From Candidatus Bathyarchaeia archaeon (GTDB lineage: Archaea > Thermoproteota > Bathyarchaeia > Bathyarchaeales > Bathycorpusculaceae): a DNA stretch of 64,000 bases. Location of the stretch: positions 576,001-640,000 of the forward strand of contig JBEKOM010000001.1 in the NCBI GenBank assembly GCA_049521795.1, in the 5' to 3' direction. Each line of letters opens with the position of its first letter. The first letter of the stretch is position 1. Below are positions 6,967-15,378 of the stretch, in pieces. The notes beneath the pieces were generated by a model. It was not told the DNA's origin. It did no database searches and saw only the letters and a list, made by a program, of their open reading frames with translations. The translations under genes were made by a program, and so were the position numbers.

Positions 6967-7983
6967 TTGGAGAGTGCAGCGCCAGTGAAAGGCTCGATCC
7001 AAGGTGCACACTTGATTGGAGTAGACTTGGGAGGTACCCGCGTAAGAGTTGTGCTCTCAGACGAAAAGGGCAACTTCATTGAGAAGAGAAGCGAAGAGGT
7101 TGACAAGAGAAACGCCGAGGCGATCTCCGACCAGATAGTCAAGCTTACGCGTTTCTTATGCACTAAACATGGCTTTGACGTCAAATCATTACTGGGCGTA
7201 GGGATCGTGTCGGCGGGCCCTCTGATTCAAGACGAGGGCGTGCTCTTCAAACCGCCGAACCTGCCGTTTGACCGTATACCTATCACGAAGCCCATCACAG
7301 AAAAGCTCGGCGTACCAGCATGTTTGATCAACGATTGTGTCGGGGCGGTTCTCGGCGAAAAAATGTTCGGCGCCGCAAAAGGGCTGGACAACTGCGTCTA
7401 CATAACCATAAGCACCGGCTTAGGCTGCGGAGCGATCGTTAACGGCACTTTGCTCTTGGGAAAAGATGGGAACGCCCATGAAGTCGGTCATTTCGTCATA
7501 GACTCTCAAGGCAGGCTGACATGTGGCTGCGGAAGACGTGGCCACTGGGAAGCTTATTGCTCTGGGAGAAACATTCCGAACTATGCCAGAATGAGATTCA
7601 AAGAAATGCGTGCGAAAACGGTGAAGGAAAGTTTGCTGTTCAATACAGTAGGAGGCGACCTGTCAAGGTTGGTTGCAGCTGACCTGTTCGCCTGTGCAAA
7701 AAAGGGCGACAGTCTGTCTGTCAAACTCGTCAACGAAATTGGGGTTCTGAACGCAATGGGCTTCGCGAGCGTGATAAACGCCTACGACCCGTCCCTTATC
7801 ACGGTTGGTGGCACTGTAACATTGAGGAACAAGAAAATGATCCTGTCTCCAATCAATAAATACGTGAAAGACTACGCGATAAACAGGGTTCCGAAGATTA
7901 TGGTTACACCTCTGGGCGAGGATGTCGGTGTTTACGGAGCTGTTGCAGCTGCTCTAAAATACATACCATCCGCTGTGAAATAG
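6967..7983 (+). CDS. ROK family sugar kinase (glucokinase-like)
   Basis: GVDLGGT, ND, STGLGCG, EVGH, CGCGRRGHWEAY motifs. Confidence 0.92.
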   Translation: MESAAPVKGSIQGAHLIGVDLGGTRVRVVLSDEKGNFIEKRSEEVDKRNAEAISDQIVKLTRFLCTKHGFDVKSLLGVGIVSAGPLIQDEGVLFKPPNLPFDRIPITKPITEKLGVPACLINDCVGAVLGEKMFGAAKGLDNCVYITISTGLGCGAIVNGTLLLGKDGNAHEVGHFVIDSQGRLTCGCGRRGHWEAYCSGRNIPNYARMRFKEMRAKTVKESLLFNTVGGDLSRLVAADLFACAKKGDSLSVKLVNEIGVLNAMGFASVINAYDPSLITVGGTVTLRNKKMILSPINKYVKDYAINRVPKIMVTPLGEDVGVYGAVAAALKYIPSAVK

Positions 7984-8211
7984 TCAGAAACGATGCTTAC
8001 TTGACTTGATCAGTGGGCCAAAAACAGAACCGTTCTAGGTCGTCAGCTTAGATCGTGGAAGTGCTCGTAGGATCTGAAACGTCCATGTAAGCAAAACTGC
8101 AACATACGGGGCTCATTCTTCTCAAGGAGCACTAGTAGTGATATGAGGCCCCCACCTACTTCTCGCATTCACATCTCGACTTCGAGAGTATGCGCGTCAA
8201 CTCAATAGGAG

Positions 8212-8442
8212 CTACTTGGTTGTTGTTGTTGCCTTTGGTGTTTCCTTCTTCATCAGGGCCCATGCGGCTATTATGATGCCAACCAAGCCGATGACTCCGG
8301 CTAAACCGTAAAAGTACCAACCATTGCCTGAACCGTAGGCTATCCCGAAGTCGTAAGCACCGGAATAGCGGACCGCGCCGAGTATTAGAGCAATGATGAT
8401 CAGTATAGCACCGAGGCCCACACCTATAGTCTTGCTATTCAA
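8212..8442 (-). CDS. Small two-TM membrane protein
   Basis: Two hydrophobic segments; GAGGT RBS; TATA-like TTTTAAATA at 8481-8489. Confidence 0.7.
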   Translation of the reverse strand: MNSKTIGVGLGAILIIIALILGAVRYSGAYDFGIAYGSGNGWYFYGLAGVIGLVGIIIAAWALMKKETPKATTTTK

Positions 8443-8501
8443 TTTTTTAACCTCTTGCCTAGGCGTTTAGGAGTAAGTGCTATTTAAAATACTCGCAGCT
8501 G

Positions 8502-8550
8502 GGTTCTGGTACCTCTTCGTCTGTTTTATCTCCTTGTTACTTTTCGTCTG
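8502..8550 (+). repeat. Left terminal inverted repeat (49 bp, bipartite)
   Basis: Against the reverse complement of 12304-12352: 22/26 identity, 7-nt unmatched spacer, then 15/16 identity; TCGTCTG repeated at 27-bp spacing. Confidence 0.9.
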
Positions 8551-8656
8551 TTACATTCAAAACGGGCCCATATGAGCTTTCTAGACTTTTTTGTCATGGT
8601 TTTTTGTAGCGCGCACCCCGACAAGGTTTTAAATTAGCAATTACAGAGAACATTAT

Positions 8657-8727
8657 AGAAGAATGAGGGGAAGGGCAGGATTTTTTCTCCTTTCTCCCTT
8701 TCTTGCCCTTTCCCCTCTCTCTCTTCT
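8657..8727 (+). ncRNA. Candidate hairpin small RNA inside the transposon
   Basis: GAGGGGAAGGGCAGGA (8665-8680) pairs with TCTTGCCCTTTCCCCTC (8701-8717), extended by AGAAGA/TCTTCT; 20-nt pyrimidine loop; TTTTAAAT box at 8627-8634. Confidence 0.4.
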
Positions 8728-8847
8728 CCTTCTGGTGCAGTCTTGGCACTTAGTATCGCGTACGCTATTACGGCTTATGAAAGATAGTTCTAGAAGAATC
8801 ATCTATTCACTCATGGCTGATTGGCGATTTTTCCTCTGTGAAGTTGT

Positions 8848-9048
8848 TTGGGACATCGCAAAAGCAAATGGGTTGTCGCAAGAAAAGAAGGCAAGCATCC
8901 GATTCGCATTGTTGCTGGAACACATTTTCGCTTGAAAAGAACCGCTATCAAGAAAGCTGGACAACTCAACCGAGCCTTCAGGCCTAGAAAAGATATTCGC
9001 TTCGTCGTTAGGCGTGAGGGTTGGAACAGAAAACGCTGGTATTCCTGA
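8848..9048 (+). CDS. Small, very basic hypothetical protein (transposon cargo)
   Basis: 66 aa, R/K-rich; stop converges on the stop of the next gene with an 11-bp gap. Confidence 0.55.
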   Translation: MGHRKSKWVVARKEGKHPIRIVAGTHFRLKRTAIKKAGQLNRAFRPRKDIRFVVRREGWNRKRWYS

Positions 9049-9059
9049 CAACAGTTGTC

Positions 9060-9317
9060 TTAGGCTTTGCGTTTCCGAGGCAGCGCAAGGTAGAAGCCGA
9101 TCAACATTACTGCGAAAGGATACATCCCAGTTAGAAAGGTGTTTACCGTTGAGAAAGGAAGAAAAAGAGCAAAGGGCTGGAAAATTAATGCGACGACATA
9201 CCTCAAGTTATCCATACCTTGCGCGCTAACCAAATAGCTGACAGAGTTTATCGCAATTCCTGCGCAGAACCCATAGATCACTAAGAATATGCCTATACTA
9301 CGTCGGTTTAGTTTCAT
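9060..9317 (-). CDS. Small membrane protein (transposon cargo)
   Basis: ATG 9317 gives 85 aa with 2-3 hydrophobic segments and a basic tail; avoids overlap with the divergent gene. Confidence 0.55.
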   Translation of the reverse strand: MKLNRRSIGIFLVIYGFCAGIAINSVSYLVSAQGMDNLRYVVALIFQPFALFLPFSTVNTFLTGMYPFAVMLIGFYLALPRKRKA

Positions 9318-9390
9318 TAGCTTCAGAGGAAAAATGCTAAATTCAACCTCTGAGTATGTTTGAATGGAAGAGGGAGAGGGGAGAAGCGTC

Positions 9391-10047
9391 TTGAAAGGCA
9401 TTATAGTGGTAATTGTCGTATACTTGCTTGTCGTGATTTGTCTCTGTAGCCCAATAGCGAATGCTGATTCGACAACGATTCTTGAGCGAAAACAAAACTT
9501 CATCGTTTACCGCGACACCTTGACTGATGGAACGGGATTGATTGGTTCGGACTTCGGCTATGTTATGCATTCTGGTGAAACTCTTTTTGTTTCATGGAAA
9601 ACAACTGAAACTATCTTCCCTGACCCAATCGTATGGCTATTAACGCAACAACAAAAAGACCATTGGAACTTTGCTGCTGGCGGTGCAATACTCTCTCCTT
9701 ATGGGTATCTTTTGAAAAAAAGTGGACATCAGGCGAGTTTCACTTTTACAGCTCAACAAGATGCAACCTATTATGTCGTTATTCATAACATTGCTTGGGG
9801 AGCATTAGATATTAGTGGACCAACATTAAACGTGGAAGCCTACGAGGCTGATCTGACCATCCCAAGTGCTCCATCTAATCCAACTCAGCCAACGAACCCA
9901 TCAGTCGGTGGAACTTGGAGTCCGATAACGAATCTTGATCTGTTTAATCATTGGGAAAGCTTGGTCTTTCTGATGATAGCATTGATAACATTGGTCGTAT
10001 GTGTTCAGAAATCTCATAATTTTTTAAACGCTAGCCATCATAGATAA
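9391..10047 (+). CDS. Secreted, C-terminally anchored protein (transposon cargo)
   Basis: TTG 9391 after purine-rich RBS; signal peptide ending ANA-D, beta-rich domain, P/T linker, SVGG motif and C-terminal TM. Confidence 0.75.
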   Translation: MKGIIVVIVVYLLVVICLCSPIANADSTTILERKQNFIVYRDTLTDGTGLIGSDFGYVMHSGETLFVSWKTTETIFPDPIVWLLTQQQKDHWNFAAGGAILSPYGYLLKKSGHQASFTFTAQQDATYYVVIHNIAWGALDISGPTLNVEAYEADLTIPSAPSNPTQPTNPSVGGTWSPITNLDLFNHWESLVFLMIALITLVVCVQKSHNFLNASHHR

Positions 10048-10184
10048 GTTTACAGTATCTAGAAAAAGAACCATAAGTCAAGGCATGGCAATCGTAGAAA
10101 TAAAAACAAAAATAGAATATCTAGAAAAGGGCTTTAACGAACTCAAAACAAATGCCACTTGGAAGAAAAGCTAGCATCTCCCTT

Positions 10185-11297
10185 CTATTTTTTGCTTGCG
10201 TTTTGAATCAATGTCAACCACTTGTTTTTTCCTTCTACCGTGATACCGCAAGCTTCCGCTGGTGTTCTTCCTTCTAATGCTTCGTGTGGTCTGATGTAGT
10301 TGTGGAAAATCTGATAACCTGAGAGAATCGGCGTTTCTTTGGTTTTGAGTCCTCGCATGGTTTTTTCTCTGTCTCTGATTTCTCCGTTGAACCTTTCCAT
10401 CTTGTTGTTATTTCTATCTCCTCTAAAGGCGATGTGTCTAACGTGTTGGGTTCGTGGGCCCTTCCTTGTCCAGAAGGCTTTTTTGTAAGCATCATGATAA
10501 ATTAGCAAACCATCGGTTATCAATGTGGCAGGTTTCTTTCCCATTAATTGTTCTCCTAGTTCGAAGAGTTTTCTTGCGTCATGCTTGTACTTTGTCTCTG
10601 CAACTTCCTGAGCAATCCAGAAACGAGTCTCATCGTCCAACAAAGCGAAAACATACTTCATGTTGCCTTTGACTTTAACGTATAATTCGTCGGCTCTCCA
10701 TGTGTCGCTTACGTTAGGCTTGAAATTCTCAACATAATCCTTCATCAATTTAACGTACTTCTTGATCCACATGAAAACGGTTTTATGAGTAACTTCCACG
10801 CCTAACAATTTTAGCGATTTCTGAGTATTCCTTAAAGACTCTCCGCTGAAATATAGTTGCATGGCAGAGGTGATAGCTTGAGGATTATGCTTCATTCTTT
10901 CAAAGCCAATGTTAATGGTAAAGTAGTGGTGACAATCTCGGCAATGGAACTTCTGAATAGCTCCTGTCTTATTCCTTCTAATTCCATCTTTCTTGAGGTT
11001 GCTTGAACCGCAATATTGGCAATCCTGAACATTTACCTCTTGAATAACTCGGCTAGTTTGGACTTCTTTTCTGATTTGGCTTGAAAATTCAACTGCAAAA
11101 ATATGTTTGCACTTTTCATGGCGATAAACATGATCTGCACATTCACAGTACCATTCTCCAGAGACTTTGAAAACCTTGTATTCTCCGTTGTTTGACTGTG
11201 ATTTTACAACGTATGTCTCTGCATCGATTCTATTGATCTGGTTTGGCATTTTTGCGATGTCTAAGCCTTTTTGTTCACGTTGGTTCAATGTTGCCAT
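10185..11297 (-). CDS. IS6-like DDE transposase with N-terminal SWIM finger and zinc ribbon
   Basis: CEC...CKH SWIM, CQYC...CRDC ribbon, HTH (SLRNTQ...VTHKTVFMWI), catalytic WRADE / ITDG / MERFN, HNYIRPH. Confidence 0.9.
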   Translation of the reverse strand: MATLNQREQKGLDIAKMPNQINRIDAETYVVKSQSNNGEYKVFKVSGEWYCECADHVYRHEKCKHIFAVEFSSQIRKEVQTSRVIQEVNVQDCQYCGSSNLKKDGIRRNKTGAIQKFHCRDCHHYFTINIGFERMKHNPQAITSAMQLYFSGESLRNTQKSLKLLGVEVTHKTVFMWIKKYVKLMKDYVENFKPNVSDTWRADELYVKVKGNMKYVFALLDDETRFWIAQEVAETKYKHDARKLFELGEQLMGKKPATLITDGLLIYHDAYKKAFWTRKGPRTQHVRHIAFRGDRNNNKMERFNGEIRDREKTMRGLKTKETPILSGYQIFHNYIRPHEALEGRTPAEACGITVEGKNKWLTLIQNASKK

Positions 11298-11420
11298 GTT
11301 ACTACACCACTATCTAGTAGTATAGTATTAAACAGCTATTTAAGGCTTACTACGAACGCACTACCACAACATAATAAGCTAAAACTATTTATACGACCTA
11401 GTAGTATTAACTATCGGTGA
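11298..11420. promoter_or_regulatory. Divergent promoter region with repeated GTAGT/ACTAC operator-like boxes
   Basis: CTAGTAGTAT at 11314-11323 and 11398-11407, TTACTAC at 11299 and 11347; TATA-like boxes on both strands. Confidence 0.55.
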
Positions 11421-11591
11421 TTGAAAACGCCAACAAATGAAAAAGAACAAATCGTAACCTCTCTGAAGGTTAGCCCTCAGTTATGGAAGCAAGCCAAAAT
11501 AGCAGCTCTTGAATGCGACATAACTCTGGGCGAACTCATAGACCAAGCTGTGCGAGATTGGATACAGAAACAGGAGAAAGGCAAAAAATGA
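11421..11591 (+). CDS. Ribbon-helix-helix DNA-binding protein, 56 aa
   Basis: Not in ORF track; TTG after GGTGA gives MKTPTNEKEQIVTSLKVSPQLWKQAKIAALECDITLGELIDQAVRDWIQKQEKGKK; stop overlaps the next ATG (ATGA). Confidence 0.8.
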   Translation: MKTPTNEKEQIVTSLKVSPQLWKQAKIAALECDITLGELIDQAVRDWIQKQEKGKK

Positions 11592-12082
11592 ATGAAGCAA
11601 CAGAAAAATACCTTCAAAACGTACTTGACAAGGGCAAGCAAAAAATAAACAAACAATTTATTCCGAGAATAAACCGCAATTACCATCAACAAACATTGGC
11701 TACGTTTAGAATGGACAGAGCATTAAAACACGATTTGGCATCTGCAAAGGCATTTCACGCTTCAAAAGGATTCATGTTCTACCAGTTTGCTGATATTTAC
11801 ACGATACTCGGTAACCTAGTTCAAAATCTGATGGAGAATGCAATACAGAATATTGCGGATTTGGATCAATTAAAGGAGAGCATTAAAGAAATCCGCGATA
11901 CGCTTGGAATGGATGTGTCAAAGGTGAAGGCTGACATCGAAGGCATTAAAGCAACCGTTAACTCAAAAGAAATTGCTATACTTGCCAAATTTGCGGAAGA
12001 CTTTAACAAACAGGTAGAAGAAACAAAGAGGAAGCTAGAAGAATACGCCAAGAAAATGAGGGAAAACGACCTTGCCTCATGA
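11588..12082 (+). CDS. Coiled-coil hypothetical protein (transposon cargo)
   Basis: ATG coupled to the RHH stop; heptad-rich C-terminal half. Confidence 0.7.
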   Translation: MNEATEKYLQNVLDKGKQKINKQFIPRINRNYHQQTLATFRMDRALKHDLASAKAFHASKGFMFYQFADIYTILGNLVQNLMENAIQNIADLDQLKESIKEIRDTLGMDVSKVKADIEGIKATVNSKEIAILAKFAEDFNKQVEETKRKLEEYAKKMRENDLAS

Positions 12083-12410
12083 TACCGTCACAGAAATCAT
12101 CGATACTCTTACAGAATTAAAACGTATGCATCAGCTTAACTTAGAGCTTCTTGAACAGTTAAGCGTATCCTGTAGTTGGCTTATGGAACATAATGTTCCA
12201 ATACCGAATGCAGAGACCATTTGCTCTTTGCTCAAGAAGGCAACGATACTGTTGAGCGAAATCCAAGCTGACCAGCCAAAGATTCTTCAATATAAAAAGC
12301 TAGCAGACGAAAAGAAACAGCCTTTCAAAACAGACGACAAGGAAACAGAACCCGCAGCTGGAGGCGCAACTGCGCGCTTGAGAGAAAGCGGTTTGACCTT
12401 TAATTCTTGA
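12072..12410 (+). CDS. Helical hypothetical protein reading through the right TIR into host DNA
   Basis: Overlaps the upstream stop; residues ADEKKQPFKTDDKETEP are encoded by the TIR; stop lies 58 nt outside the element. Confidence 0.65.
   Translation: MPHDTVTEIIDTLTELKRMHQLNLELLEQLSVSCSWLMEHNVPIPNAETICSLLKKATILLSEIQADQPKILQYKKLADEKKQPFKTDDKETEPAAGGATARLRESGLTFNS
12304..12352 (-). repeat. Right terminal inverted repeat (49 bp, bipartite)
   Basis: Reverse complement GGTTCTGTTTCCTTGTCGTCTGTTTT...TGTTTCTTTTCGTCTG; followed by TSD CGCAGCTG. Confidence 0.9.
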
Positions 12411-12669
12411 TTCGCTGTTAGTGCGCGCTTTGAAGTCCATTTTCTTGGAAAAAACTCGCAAAACAGTTACGCCACATGTGGACAACCTGACAATGTTAAC
12501 GTGAGTGCGCGGCATGTCCTTTGTGAAGTGCAATGAATGTGCGAATAAGCTGTCAAGTTCGTTGCTCGATTGCTGCAGGTCAGATGCTTATCCGACAAAG
12601 CTTTAAGGCTTATATCCTATGATTCGGATTATTTTCAAAGAAGTGTTTGTGGGGGAATAATGGAAAGCT

Positions 12670-15378
12670 ATGTTGAAACGTTTTGCAGCGTTTTTCATGG
12701 TATTGATAGTTGTCGCAAGCGTTAGCAATGTTGCCTTCAGAGTCTCTGCTGTTCAGAGTTCAAGCTTGCCTCAATCCACGGGGCATAATGGCCTTGTCTC
12801 AGTTAATGGTGATCCAAATCAGTTGGTTATAGGCGTAAATCAGACAACTCCATGGGCCTATGACGAATTGACAAGCCTTGTTCTGAGAACAGGAGGAAAA
12901 AGCGTGAGCAACGTTTCAGTTGAAGGGCAGGCTATCGCGATTGTTGTTGACGTGCCTTCAGACAATTTGTCAATTCTTTCGAATGAGGTCCAAAGGACAG
13001 GGCTGGCCAGATACGTGGAACCCAACATGCTGTTCGAGGTACAGTTCGTTCCGAACGACCCGCTCTACGGCAATCAGTGGGCTCTGCCCAAGATTCAGGC
13101 TGACTGGGCATGGAACACGACCACAGGAAACTCGTCCGTGCTTGTGGCCATCATAGATACTGGGATTGATTATAACCATCCTGACCTGAAGAACAACTAC
13201 GTTGCCCTTGGCAAAAACTGGGTCAACAATAGCAGTGATCCGATCGACGATAATGGACATGGAACACATGTTGCTGGAATAATTGGAGCGGTCTTGAACA
13301 ATGGGGTGGGCATTGCAGGGATTGCTCAGGTCAGCATCATGGCTGAGAAAGCCTTGAACGCCACTGGCTGGGGTCTTGAAACCGACTTGGCGAATGCCAT
13401 AATCGACGCAGTGCAAAAAGGTGCGCGCATTCTGAGCAACAGCTGGGGCGGTGGTTCTGACAGTTCGCTCATTCACGATGCTGTTCGCTACGCGTACCAG
13501 CATGGGGTCCTAGTGCTTGCTGCGGCAGGAAACTCGAATTCTGATGCGAGGTTTTACCCCGCGGCCTACGACGAAGTTGTCGCGGTTGCCGCCACAAACG
13601 CGTTCGACACAAAGGCGGCGTTCTCAAACTGGGGAAGCTGGATTGCGGTTTCAGCACCTGGCGTCAACATTTTTTCAACGATGCCCACATACCATGTGAC
13701 ACTGAACGATTATCCCTACTCTGAGTCTATGAACTATGATTATCTGAGTGGCACATCAATGGCTTGTCCGCAGGCCGCAGGTGTGGCTGCTCTCATCTGG
13801 AGCAGTTTTCCCAACGCGACGAGAGACTGGGTAAGAGGTCAATTGAGCTTCACCTCTGACGATTTGGGAGACCCTGGTTTCGACGTGATCTATGGCGCTG
13901 GAAGAGTCAACGCAAGGAAAGCCGTTGAACAGCAACCGTTACAGCACGATCTGTTCCTGTACAGATATGATATGCCAACTTTTGTTCAACCTGGAGACAT
14001 GGTTCCGATCAGCCTGACTGTTCTTAATTTTGGATCAAGCAGCGAAAGCAACGTTAACGTAAGCATTCTTGTCGATGGGACCGTTGTTGATTCAACGATC
14101 CTTCAACCTTTGGCAAGTGACTCGTTCGCCACGCCGGTTGTGCTCTTTTGGAATCCTCTTGAAAATGGGACCCACAATGTGACCATGTACGTTCAGCCCG
14201 TCACTGGTGAAACCATTGTCAGCGACAACGTAATATCAGTCCAGGTCAACGTGCAATTCTTGGTTAGCTTAAGTCCGTCACGAGGCCCCGTCGGAACAGG
14301 CGTAACAGTCACGGGTGTCCAGTTTACTCCCAGCAGCGTAGTGGAAATCACGTTTAACGACATGTTTCTGGGCTATGCGGCCACAGATTCTGTTGGCGAT
14401 TTCACGTTCACGTTCAACGTGCCATTTTCGACGGCTGAAACATGGATCGTTAAGGCTTTTGACGCTAACGTCTTTGGTGAAACCAACTTCACCGTCGTCG
14501 ATGTCACTCCGCTGAACGTTCAAGTAGATGTTGGCGCGCTTCAATTCAGAGGCGAAGTTGTCACGTTTCTGATATACGCAGCTTTCAACGGGTCCGCAGC
14601 CAACGCCACGGTTTCAAGCGCCTTGCTTTACAAGCCTGACGGTTCCAACCAAACATTGACGGTTCAACCCGTTGCAGAAGGGCTTTCTCAGGCGTCTTAC
14701 ACGTTGCCCGCCGATGCTCAGACAGGCTCCTACGCGTTGGTCATCACTGCGGGCTACTCATCAAGCCTGGTGCAATCTTTGGGAACGGCGTTCAAATCAT
14801 TCTTGGTGAGCCCAACCCTCTCAGGGTGGAACGCCGTGCTCACCACCGTCAACCAAACTGTTGGAACGATACGGACAGATCTGGGCTTAGTGAACGTGCG
14901 CCTTGACGCGCTTGACCTGACTCTAGCGCGCATTGAGGGAGACGTTGTGACGTTAAACTCCTCTTTGGGAACGATTCAGTCTGACTTGGAGACGATAGGA
15001 TTCAAAGTCACAGCGATAAACGGGACGATAGCAACCATGGAAACTGTTCTGGGCACAGTTAACGGGACAGTGACTTCAATCAGGGATGAGAAGGCAACCA
15101 TCATAATTCAAGGAATCGGACAGGTGGAGAGTGACGTTTCCAGTTTGAAGGTTGAGCAAGGAAACTGGACGATACCGCAGTACGCCATCCTAGCCTCAAC
15201 GCTGGTCGCAGCGGCATGCGCGTTGCTGGCGATTGCGATGTTCAGGCGCAGGAGAGCAGCTGCACCCATACACGAAGAACCCAAAAGCGAAGAACCCAAA
15301 AGTCCCGAGGGCCAGCCCGAAAGTTCTGGACAGGATTTGACGACGGGGCAAGAGAGCGGGCAAGAGGGCGTCACCTGA
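12670..15378 (+). CDS. Membrane-anchored S8 subtilisin-like serine protease with CARDB/Ig-like domains and stalk repeats
   Basis: Signal peptide; triad IIDTG, HGTHVAG, GTSMACP; C-terminal TM followed by RRRR. Confidence 0.93.
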   Translation: MLKRFAAFFMVLIVVASVSNVAFRVSAVQSSSLPQSTGHNGLVSVNGDPNQLVIGVNQTTPWAYDELTSLVLRTGGKSVSNVSVEGQAIAIVVDVPSDNLSILSNEVQRTGLARYVEPNMLFEVQFVPNDPLYGNQWALPKIQADWAWNTTTGNSSVLVAIIDTGIDYNHPDLKNNYVALGKNWVNNSSDPIDDNGHGTHVAGIIGAVLNNGVGIAGIAQVSIMAEKALNATGWGLETDLANAIIDAVQKGARILSNSWGGGSDSSLIHDAVRYAYQHGVLVLAAAGNSNSDARFYPAAYDEVVAVAATNAFDTKAAFSNWGSWIAVSAPGVNIFSTMPTYHVTLNDYPYSESMNYDYLSGTSMACPQAAGVAALIWSSFPNATRDWVRGQLSFTSDDLGDPGFDVIYGAGRVNARKAVEQQPLQHDLFLYRYDMPTFVQPGDMVPISLTVLNFGSSSESNVNVSILVDGTVVDSTILQPLASDSFATPVVLFWNPLENGTHNVTMYVQPVTGETIVSDNVISVQVNVQFLVSLSPSRGPVGTGVTVTGVQFTPSSVVEITFNDMFLGYAATDSVGDFTFTFNVPFSTAETWIVKAFDANVFGETNFTVVDVTPLNVQVDVGALQFRGEVVTFLIYAAFNGSAANATVSSALLYKPDGSNQTLTVQPVAEGLSQASYTLPADAQTGSYALVITAGYSSSLVQSLGTAFKSFLVSPTLSGWNAVLTTVNQTVGTIRTDLGLVNVRLDALDLTLARIEGDVVTLNSSLGTIQSDLETIGFKVTAINGTIATMETVLGTVNGTVTSIRDEKATIIIQGIGQVESDVSSLKVEQGNWTIPQYAILASTLVAAACALLAIAMFRRRRAAAPIHEEPKSEEPKSPEGQPESSGQDLTTGQESGQEGVT

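Follow-up and report, generated by a model that had tools for sequence, protein, structure and literature searches.

A long archaeal transposon with an IS6-like catalytic core, several genes, and two putative binding sites at each end

The stretch of DNA studied here, referred to as the window, comprises 64 kb from a Candidatus Bathyarchaeia archaeon (GenBank assembly GCA_049521795.1, contig JBEKOM010000001.1, forward strand 576,001-640,000; positions are counted from the window start). It contains a region that is very probably one intact, single-copy, autonomous transposon. The element is a member of a large family in archaea, and the transposase of this family is distantly related to the IS6/IS240 DDE enzymes and extended at its N terminus. 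IS6 elements are the textbook one-gene insertion sequences (ISs), and they move other genes only as two-copy composites. The element in the window is best described as a unit transposon of archaea that is related to IS6 and has an operon led by a putative regulator, passenger genes, and two sites at each end, and it represents a very abundant archaeal relative of IS6 with another design, in which a single transposase gene (tnp) is accompanied by what appears to be a built-in regulator and by room for passengers.

The boundaries can be read directly from the window. The element spans 8502..12352 (3,851 bp) and is flanked on both sides by a perfect 8-bp duplication, CGCAGCTG. Its left end begins GGTTCTGG and its right end, reverse-complemented, begins GGTTCTGT (longer reads are GGTTCTGGTACC for the left end and, as reverse complement, GGTTCTGTTTCC for the right), and the tips at both ends follow GGTTCTG(G/T)T. 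Compared by hand, the two ends match at 22/26 positions, diverge over a 7-nt unmatched spacer, and then match again at 15/16; TCGTCTG is found in all four end blocks. Most of this had been claimed in a sequence-only reading of the same DNA, including the duplication around 3,851 bp, the GGTTCTG starts, and the TCGTCTG in each block, and all of it was re-read in the sequence: the element is real and intact. A repeat search placed the outer blocks at the top of the inverted repeats of the region (I1, 8501-8527 with 12327-12353, 27 nt, 85%) and the inner blocks at rank five (I5, 8535-8553 with 12301-12319, 19 nt, 89%). A 26-nt end pattern searched with up to three mismatches occurs in the 64-kb window only at the two end sites, and not at all in 100 shuffles. 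The 8-mer CGCAGCTG has four copies in the window compared with 2.2 expected, and because it is not rare in itself, its weight rests on its position flush with both tips. Between positions 8200 and 12700 the element also stands out as a GC-poor island, with 37.5-45% GC within it compared with 48-54% outside.

The same design recurs widely. One scan of species-representative, and thus species-dereplicated, genomes yielded 79 related loci (L001-L079, 1.29 Mb in total), most of them from Bathyarchaeia and others from Nitrososphaeria, Methanoperedens, Methanotrichaceae, and Atabeyarchaeia. For each locus, every pair of positions around tnp was scored for 26-nt inverted repeats (IRs) together with an 8-bp flanking repeat, and an element was called where a GG-tipped IR pair of at least 17/26 was bordered by a perfect 8/8 duplication. 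Such a pair was found in 54 of the 79 loci, in addition to the window, and in every case it delimits a long element with a single tnp; the sequence-only reading had proposed a single-transposase unit with long, duplication-flanked ends from the one copy in the window, and this proposal now extends to most of the family. Of the 3,114 GG-tipped IR pairs in the window and the 79 loci, 56 have an 8/8 duplication, compared with one when a decoy flank is used. The elements measure 1,983-6,554 bp (median 3,625), and the ends lie 364-4,785 bp from tnp on its 5' side and 45-3,837 bp from it on the 3' side. Homologs with ends tight against the transposase gene had been named beforehand as a finding that would count against a long element; we looked for them and found no locus among the 79 that is tight on both sides, with four (L014, L060, L037, and L050) tight on the 3' side only, which gives a minimal element of ~2.0-2.3 kb. 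Members of the family are currently annotated just as "transposase-like protein," and their 2-6.5-kb extent is missed. As a separate observation, two full elements (L036 and L064) lie on contigs of one metagenome-assembled genome labelled Limnocylindrales bacterium, for which either mis-binning or cross-domain transfer is possible.

The catalytic core of the transposase is that of the IS240/IS6 type. Pfam DDE_Tnp_IS240 (PF13610) matches residues 198-336 with an E-value of 3.1e-16 and 60.2 bits (cut-off 27), and the best NCBIfam transposase model is IS6, at 117.5 bits, followed by IS1 at 55.8 bits; positions 1-200 of the 202 in the IS6 model align to residues 132-334, which hold the helix-turn-helix (HTH) region and the DDE domain. 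An IS6-like transposase had been proposed from the sequence, and these scores agree with it. The extra domains named in the same reading are seen as well: the SWIM motif CxC...CxH (C51, C53, C63, H65) and the zinc ribbon CxxC...CxxC (C93, C96, C119, C122) are, like the DDE residues (D203, D262, E306), invariant across a 31-sequence alignment, 29 of the 31 relatives have a match to Pfam SWIM (PF04434; best E 8.4e-7), and residues 93-127 match IS1/IS1595-type zinc-binding domains in NCBIfam. A protein database search returned 5,389 homologous clusters at E <= 1e-3, and the best 120 homologs are all of 366-387 aa and 71-81% identical. Known enzymes are much farther away. A comparison with 72,556 plasmids gave as its top match a clostridial "IS6 family transposase" with 26.6% identity over residues 54-360, and IS26 and IS6100 are 27-30% identical over residues 152-331, about half of the protein. 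The nearest annotated plasmid relatives are thus IS6-family transposases at 26-30% identity, and because the matches reach only this level, we regard the protein as a distant, N-terminally extended IS6 relative. Structure adds little to this assignment. An AlphaFold model (mean predicted local distance difference test [pLDDT] 60, predicted template modeling score 0.26) is unreliable for the catalytic core and confident only for residues 1-78, which form four strands followed by helices (residues 21-82, pLDDT 64-86), and a search of Protein Data Bank (PDB) sequences with the transposase profile gave nothing below E 0.38.

Both ends of the 55 elements were listed and aligned. Across the family the tips read GG(T/A)(T/A/G)CTGT, and each end is made of two direct copies of a ~20-bp site, an outer one consisting of GGTTCTGTnAnnTCTnCG plus a 6-nt box and an inner one consisting of the direct copy TGTnAnnnnTCG plus the same box. 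Together they occupy 49-52 bp in the window element and up to ~62 bp in relatives; the repeat search recovered the outer and inner blocks of one window end as a direct repeat 27 bp apart (D14). The box is TCTGTT in the window and TCGGAT, TTTGGT, GTTGAT, GGTGAT, TCAC.., or GCGCAT.. in other elements. It varies among elements, yet is common to the outer and inner sites and to both ends of any one of them. The 8-mer of an element is found again at the inner position, at 7/8 or better, in 64 of 110 ends, and in the other end in 65 of 110 tests, compared with 112 of 1,081 tests (10%) when the box of another element is used as a control. Inner 8-mers start at position 43-45 in 45 ends and at position 52-55 in 18 ends, two classes that lie one helical turn apart. 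Because the box co-varies within an element, each end appears to hold two sites, as had been suggested for the window by the sequence-only reading, and the excess over the 10% control supports the view that both would be read by the same sequence-specific protein, presumably the transposase.

The targets of the 55 insertions were reconstructed and aligned, and they share a hexamer, T-W-T-A-A-R, at exactly -11 to -6 from the duplication, which leaves a 5-nt gap. It is matched at 5/6 or better on at least one side of 35 of the 55 targets, against a rate of 3.7% at positions drawn at random from these loci, and the correct offset collects 26 hits on the tnp-5' side and 16 on the other, compared with no more than eight at any other offset. 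Because the consensus came from the same data, two further tests were added. Hexamers composed only of A and T and ending 6 nt before the duplication occur in 39 of 110 flanks, compared with 2.7 expected, and in a held-out test a matrix built from half of the sites puts 18 of the 27 other sites above the 95th percentile of the background. In the window the hexamer is TTTAAA, and the neighboring gene (8212..8442, minus strand) starts 40 nt from it and points away from the element. Family-wide, an open reading frame (ORF) reading outward starts 15-70 nt from the motif on 19 of 40 motif-bearing sides, compared with 324 of 1,234 (26%) of all such hexamers in the loci, whereas ORFs that cross the site show no excess (9/40 vs. 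25%). Because outward starts are enriched and crossing ORFs are not, the motif is probably the promoter TATA box of the neighboring gene that reads outward, and the element would lie just upstream of it, a reading that these counts support moderately.

Stacked elements bear on how the target is chosen. In the 1.29 Mb of loci, element ends abut at 15 junctions; the spacer is exactly 8 bp at 12 of them and 6, 12, or 15 bp at one each, and the opposite orientation of the ends shows no spacing peak. The 8-bp spacers bear out the length of the duplication independently. The 8 bp at a junction are the duplication of the tnp-bearing element, and the neighbors are other family members with other boxes; L003 and L029 each contain a run of three elements with the same 8 bp between them. 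The window element is solitary. One explanation, to which we give slightly less than an even chance, is that the hexamer reflects mere sequence or bendability preference, acting as a half-site on either side, and that the stacks come from the targeting of resident ends, as in IS30. This would account for the occurrence of the motif on both sides in the numbers given above, as from a two-fold symmetric target complex, and for junction spacers equal in length to the duplication, and IS30 indeed inserts beside its own IRs and forms IR-IR junctions (PMC9333248, from the portion of that source consulted). However, a preference of this kind leaves the excess of outward start codons over the 26% background, and the lack of one for crossing ORFs, to be explained. 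Further, at the motif position, the flank of the tnp-bearing element is rich in A and T in nine of nine defined arrays, and it matches the hexamer at 5/6 or better in seven of them. The stack partners away from the motif retain a full tnp gene in two cases and only fragments in at least five, and such frequent truncation of distal partners is predicted by the re-use of a motif-anchored target, not by end-targeting alone. The stacks are explained economically if a single motif-anchored target is used repeatedly and is regenerated beside the motif by each duplication.

A stronger version of this explanation is that the element homes to promoters, which we offer tentatively and consider unlikely on present evidence. 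The SWIM and zinc module of the transposase may read the TFB recognition element (BRE) and TATA region, or the TBP and TFB proteins bound there, so that insertion would occur 5 bp from the TATA box and upstream of the outward gene. As the duplication would restore the target beside the TATA box, the same 8 bp could be hit repeatedly and stacks would build, with the youngest member nearest the promoter. If this is true, stacked members that lose their inner ends could merge into larger transposons and carry restriction-modification and other genes with them, and the family would be a prokaryotic counterpart of the safe-haven targeting of the Ty3/Tf1 type.

On the 5' side of tnp lies a divergent operon of three genes, here called D, E, and F. 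Gene D is first and encodes a small protein resembling the ribbon-helix-helix (RHH) class, a likely repressor. It matches RHH_10 (E 0.021) and Antitox_RHH (E 0.036), both below the cut-offs, and its homolog in L020 matches RHH_1 with E 5.6e-4 and 20.2 bits, compared with a cut-off of 20.5. Gene E has only three homologs among 5.8 billion proteins and is syntenic in L002 and L014; its ESM Atlas scores (<=0.78) are uninformative. Gene F has 55 homologs besides the cluster of the window protein itself, and they all diverge immediately past ..TEP, the residues that the tip encodes. A model of its product shows helices at residues 3-39 and 47-65 with pLDDT of 85-95, followed by a disordered tail, and a fold search of this model against the PDB gave zero matches at E <= 10. 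Syntenic homologs of D, E, and F were found in six, two, and six other loci, respectively, with order and orientation kept in the closest relatives. Nonsynonymous differences per site (pN) are fewer than synonymous ones (pS) in gene D (pN 0.13-0.26 vs. pS 0.43-0.79) and gene F (pN 0.23-0.34 vs. pS 0.76-0.84); by this measure D and F are under purifying selection. Gene E, with pN of 0.40-0.44 and pS of 0.69-0.79, evolves faster than either. Differences cluster at third codon positions.

The position of the small first gene is more constant than its fold. In relatives, the first gene diverging from tnp is of the MazE/AbrB type in 14 loci and of the RHH type in two, and in one locus each it is a DUF7557 protein, a zinc ribbon, or a DUF2080 protein ("putative transposon-encoded protein"); the BLAST cluster of AbrB-like first genes has 22 members upstream of tnp. 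A divergent ORF of 40-90 aa lies within 260 nt of tnp in 50 of the 55 elements, a count that has no control. Behind it come either subgroup-specific genes or recognizable cargo. The E and F genes of different subgroups show no homology by hhalign (probabilities of 0.2-29%), and the sole weak match of F spans 19 columns and probably corresponds to the peptide that the common end repeat encodes. In 19 of the 55 elements the last gene runs out through the end, because the strand of the end repeat that gene F reads is nearly free of T and so contains no stop in any frame. Since the reading frame continues into host DNA, the last gene gains a different tail at each insertion. Between tnp and gene D, an ACTAC / GTAGTAT motif is repeated at 11309-11323 and 11393-11407, and the arrangement ACTAC..CACT..GTAGTAT is invariant in five related elements, where it lies between the tnp start codon and the tnp TATA-like box. 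From this placement we infer that gene D may repress both the tnp promoter and that of its own operon.

The operon might instead be an addiction or defense cassette, for example one resembling a toxin-antitoxin system with an RHH antitoxin, that is carried as ordinary cargo and has no part in the control of transposition. This appears rather unlikely to us. Its layout, a small RHH or MazE/AbrB gene first with an overlapping start for the next, is that of type II toxin-antitoxin systems, restriction-modification genes stand behind the small gene in relatives such as L010, L064, and L067, and no homology is detected between the E and F genes of different subgroups. However, neither E nor F has a toxin or defense hit in PADLOC, Pfam, or NCBIfam, the small DNA-binding gene keeps its place beside tnp across the family while its fold varies, and the repeated motifs overlap both divergent promoters, which fits a regulator that also acts on tnp. 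Further, the roles of cassette and regulator are not mutually exclusive. By comparison, it is very improbable that tnp belongs to a short, ordinary IS with tight ends that lies by chance inside a larger island or between solo ends or miniature inverted-repeat transposable elements, with the distal repeats and CGCAGCTG unrelated to it: known IS6 members do measure 0.7-1.76 kb (PMC7986276, in the portion consulted), and two inverted repeats do lie near tnp (I13, 10191-10210 with 11418-11437, 20 nt, 85%; I23, 10186-10199 with 11634-11647, 14 nt, 100%), but these have neither GG tips nor a flanking duplication, the GG-tipped, duplication-flanked ends of the 54 related loci all lie at a distance, nowhere nearer than 364 bp on the 5' side of tnp, and the ends, F, D, and tnp follow one another in an order common to the closest relatives, with the frame of F conserved up to the tip.

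Several observations weigh against the description of the region as an IS6-related unit transposon, or against parts of it. Twenty-five of the 79 loci are without a duplication-flanked pair. Among these, three (L035, L054, and L071) have an 8-bp duplication shifted by 1 nt at one end, eight (L008, L018, L031, L042, L048, L049, L066, and L077) have good IR pairs (19-26/26) and no duplication, and the remaining loci are short contigs, truncated, or unresolved. IR pairs without a duplication would be expected after recombination between copies or after replicative events, with which they are compatible without being diagnostic. An all-against-all blastn comparison of the 55 elements gave no near-identical full-length pair, and because there is no such second copy, we infer from the duplication and the family pattern that the cargo moves as a unit. 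The NCBIfam IS6 score of the transposase falls just under the curated equivalog cut-off of 125, its identity to canonical IS6 transposases stays below 30%, and it has no Pfam SWIM match at E <= 1, though all of the motif residues are present. The hexamer consensus was derived from the same sites that were scored, a circularity that the further tests remove only partly, and the RHH assignment of gene D depends on sub-threshold matches.

Taken as a unit transposon, the element could work as follows. The transposase would bind the outer and inner ~20-bp sites at each end, probably through its zinc-ribbon and HTH part, and the 6-nt box would set which transposase recognizes which element. It would then synapse the four sites, cleave at the GG tips, and join the target DNA with an 8-bp stagger. 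The target would adjoin a hexamer of the TTTAAA/TATAAA type, in most cases immediately upstream of the promoter that serves an outward-reading gene, and the duplication would keep that neighboring promoter whole. Movement may be replicative, via a cointegrate as in IS26, or cut-and-paste, and the transposition chemistry, like any tethering to promoters, is put forward here from sequence comparison. The product of gene D, and of the AbrB/MazE genes that take its place in most relatives, probably binds the ACTAC/GTAGTA repeats and represses both tnp and its own operon. Genes E and F would be subfamily-specific components, and the genes on the other side of tnp interchangeable passengers.

The passengers of the window element lie on its left, 3' of tnp (Table 1). 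Homologs of the 66-aa basic gene were found only in the cargo of L004 (6039-6245) and L005 (11866-12063), at other positions, and BLAST and HMM searches of the 54 other elements gave no homolog of the ORFs within 9060..10047. For the 227-aa product, ESM Atlas matches suggest a GOLD/emp24-like fold, with scores of 0.84-0.89 and template modeling scores of 0.44-0.50 that lie under the reliability line of the tool, and we treat this as a lead only. PADLOC gave no hits for all eight proteins of the element. A second family of small, very basic passengers (BLAST cluster 9) was seen in L001, L002, L009, L015, L020, and L045; proteins of both families are ~65-70 aa, their positions differ among elements, and no function was found for either. 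The sequence-only reading had placed cargo on both sides of tnp, which is right for the left side of the window element; on the right, 5' of tnp, the genes instead form the divergent operon with its recurring D/E/F module. Its count of six other ORFs inside the element is roughly right, in that six were counted, but the 112-aa frame at the right exits through the end.

The contents of the relatives are more recognizable. Pfam scans of 281 ORFs placed restriction-modification or restriction genes inside the ends of 15 of the 54 relatives, on either side of tnp (Table 1), and further cargo includes ParE, PIN, SocA/Panacea, GNAT, NYN, NOV_C, and DUF3800 proteins. Genes unrelated to transposition thus lie inside the ends and differ among relatives, as in a unit transposon or an IS with passenger genes (tIS). 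Genes for a ROK-family kinase (6967..7983) and for a CARDB-containing S8 subtilase (12670..15378) flank the element. A CT-rich/GA-rich low-complexity stretch at 8650-8730 has a 16-nt partner of 94% complementarity at 9367-9382, 640 nt off (I15), and an Rfam scan of 8300-12600 returned only sub-threshold, miRNA-type noise around the CT-rich stretch.

Table 1. Features of the element in the window, followed by features located in related loci (locus coordinates for the latter)
Feature	Position	Strand	Basis
Target-site duplication, left copy (CGCAGCTG)	8494..8501	.	Sequence, family statistics
Target-site duplication, right copy (CGCAGCTG)	12353..12360	.	Sequence
TATA-box-like hexamer TTTAAA in host flank, 5 nt from duplication	8483..8488	.	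Same position as family motif
Outer putative transposase-binding site and cleavage tip GGTTCTG, end 3' of tnp	8502..8527	+	I1, family end alignment
Inner direct copy of putative binding site (TGTTAC..TCGTCTGTT), 27 bp inward of outer	8535..8553	+	D14, I5
Inner putative binding-site copy, end 5' of tnp	12301..12319	-	I5, family end alignment
Outer putative binding site and tip, end 5' of tnp	12327..12352	-	I1, 26-nt pattern search
tnp, transposase, 370 aa: SWIM finger, zinc ribbon, HTH region, IS240/IS6-type DDE core	10185..11297	-	Pfam, NCBIfam, alignment
Divergent promoter and putative operator region, 123 bp, two TATA-like boxes	11298..11420	.	Direct repeats
Gene D, 56 aa, RHH-like, first in operon diverging from tnp, likely repressor	11421..11591	+	Weak Pfam, synteny
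Gene E, 164 aa, helical/coiled-coil; start overlaps stop of D	11588..12082	+	Coiled-coil-type weak matches only (Pfam, NCBIfam)
Gene F, 112 aa: conserved 65-residue helical hairpin and disordered tail encoded by end repeat, then host DNA	12072..12410	+	
Passenger, 66-aa very basic protein	8848..9048	+	BLAST cluster 24; nucleotide match to L005; no PADLOC hit
Possible passenger, 86-aa membrane protein, weakly supported	9060..9320	-	ORF; no Pfam/NCBIfam match
Passenger, 227 aa: N-terminal signal/anchor, beta-rich domain, Pro/Thr linker, C-terminal membrane helix	9364..10047	+	ORF, Pfam scan
8-bp junctions between stacked elements	L001 7246-7269; L003 8883-8906, 12394-12417; L005 13053-13076; L010 11523-11546; L020 8826-8849		
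8-bp junctions between stacked elements	L024 9592-9615; L029 16166-16189; L050 8807-8830; L053 2489-2512; L058 1948-1971; L072 8030-8053		
N6 methyltransferases, often with specificity subunits or HsdR-type domains	8 loci: L004, L012, L044, L061, L064, L067, L070, L075		
N4/N6 methyltransferases, some with Mrr or BsaWI-type nucleases	5 loci: L003, L010, L039, L068, L074		
GmrSD/HNH	2 loci: L022, L063		

Since 15 of the 54 relatives carry restriction-modification or restriction genes, the family is a likely vehicle for defense genes in uncultured archaea. The co-varying boxes amount to a natural experiment on the specificity of transposases for DNA, and the fixed distance from a TATA-like hexamer makes promoter homing by a prokaryotic DDE transposon a testable idea.

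Individual features of the element have counterparts in quite different systems. Tn7, Mu, and the inverted repeat/direct repeat elements such as Sleeping Beauty have direct repeats of binding sites inside each end, of which only the outer lies beside the cleavage point. Their transposases are unrelated to the one described here, and the sites in the present family number exactly two, 27 or 37 bp apart. The eukaryotic retroelements Ty3 and Tf1 insert at a fixed, short interval from the elements of core promoters and leave genes intact; their integrases are tethered by transcription factors, whereas the resemblance here lies only in a DNA motif and in the statistics of gene orientation. A small RHH protein inside a transposon also has a precedent, in that Arc is encoded in IS605-family transposons and represses transposon genes, according to the part of a recent preprint consulted (bioRxiv 10.64898/2026.09.24.754181). 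Repression is proposed there as it is for gene D, whose role is suggested here by its position and the repeats beside it, but the IS605 elements form an HUH TnpA/TnpB family with another gene layout.

The combination of features was not found described in the literature searched, which included the consulted portions of surveys of archaeal ISs and integrated elements (PMC13343696, PMC6563490, PMC11529989, PMC8813620) and whose scope left out ISfinder and the supplements of papers. Supplemental Table S1 of one of these sources, as referred to in its text, lists five IS-like transposons of Atabeyarchaeia (PMC11529989), and its contents fall outside the comparison. The Aloposons of Heimdallarchaeia were considered and rejected as relatives, as they are described as integrating at tRNA genes and carrying giant genes (PMC8813620, in the portion consulted). 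Among archaeal elements, the IS6-like ISs listed in ISfinder from Halobacteria, Thermococcales, Methanococcales, and Sulfolobales (PMC6807381) share with the family archaeal hosts and a distant relation to bacterial IS6, and the sections of that source consulted give them terminal inverted repeats that are longer than the bacterial ones and in many cases start with GG and have G at position 7. Unlike the element in the window, they are short, single-gene elements, here compared by description only, with the signature E--F---K-R after the catalytic E (PMC6807381); the window transposase has E-F-then-R, the bacterial spacing. The same sections hold the archaeal and long clostridial members to be too distant for the IS6 family (Harmer and Hall 2019; PMC6807381).

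The closest comparison is with the IS6/IS26 family itself (IS26, IS257/IS431, IS6100). According to the portion of the family survey consulted (Varani et al. 2021; PMC7986276), its members average ~800 bp, with seven of 1,230-1,460 bp and three of 1,710-1,760 bp, have IRs of 15-20 bp with GG tips and 8-bp repeats, and show transposase identities of 40-94% within the family. The element in the window shares with them an IS240-type DDE domain with an HTH region upstream, the 8-bp duplication, the GG tips followed by a TGT motif (consensus in PMC7986276), and the NN..E......[KR].R..M.G.K stretch around the catalytic E, which is visible in the alignment of the window transposase. In contrast, it is 3.85 kb long and has at least six genes where IS6 elements have ~0.8 kb and one gene, its ends are bipartite and of 49-52 bp where theirs are a single IR of 15-20 bp, its transposase has a 130-residue N-terminal extension with the SWIM and zinc-ribbon motifs, the 27-30% identity to IS26 and IS6100 covers only half of the protein, and its genes lie inside one copy, whereas IS26 moves genes between two direct copies. 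Thus, the IS6-like assignment made from the sequence alone holds for the catalytic domain, the duplication, and the tips, and the element falls outside the family in the strict sense by its length, its number of genes, the structure of its ends, and its identity.

Two groups within the IS6 survey come closer in single respects. Zinc-finger N-terminal extensions are described there for clostridial clades (PMC7986276), of which clades h and i have, like the window transposase, an extra CxxC zinc-finger region before the IS6 core, and the best plasmid match to our protein, over residues 54-360, is of this type. These elements are bacterial, 26.6% identical in the transposase, and 1.2-1.76 kb long, and in the portion of the survey consulted no passengers are reported for them and no SWIM module or bipartite ends are described (PMC7986276). 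ISDsp3, a "tIS," is the only IS6 member that the same portion credits with a passenger gene (PMC7986276), and it shares with the present family the presence of one tnp and of non-transposition DNA within one pair of ends. ISDsp3 is one element with one hypothetical passenger, whereas the family described here comprises 54 delimited relatives of the window element, in which an operon headed by a putative regulator is combined with variable cargo, restriction-modification systems included.

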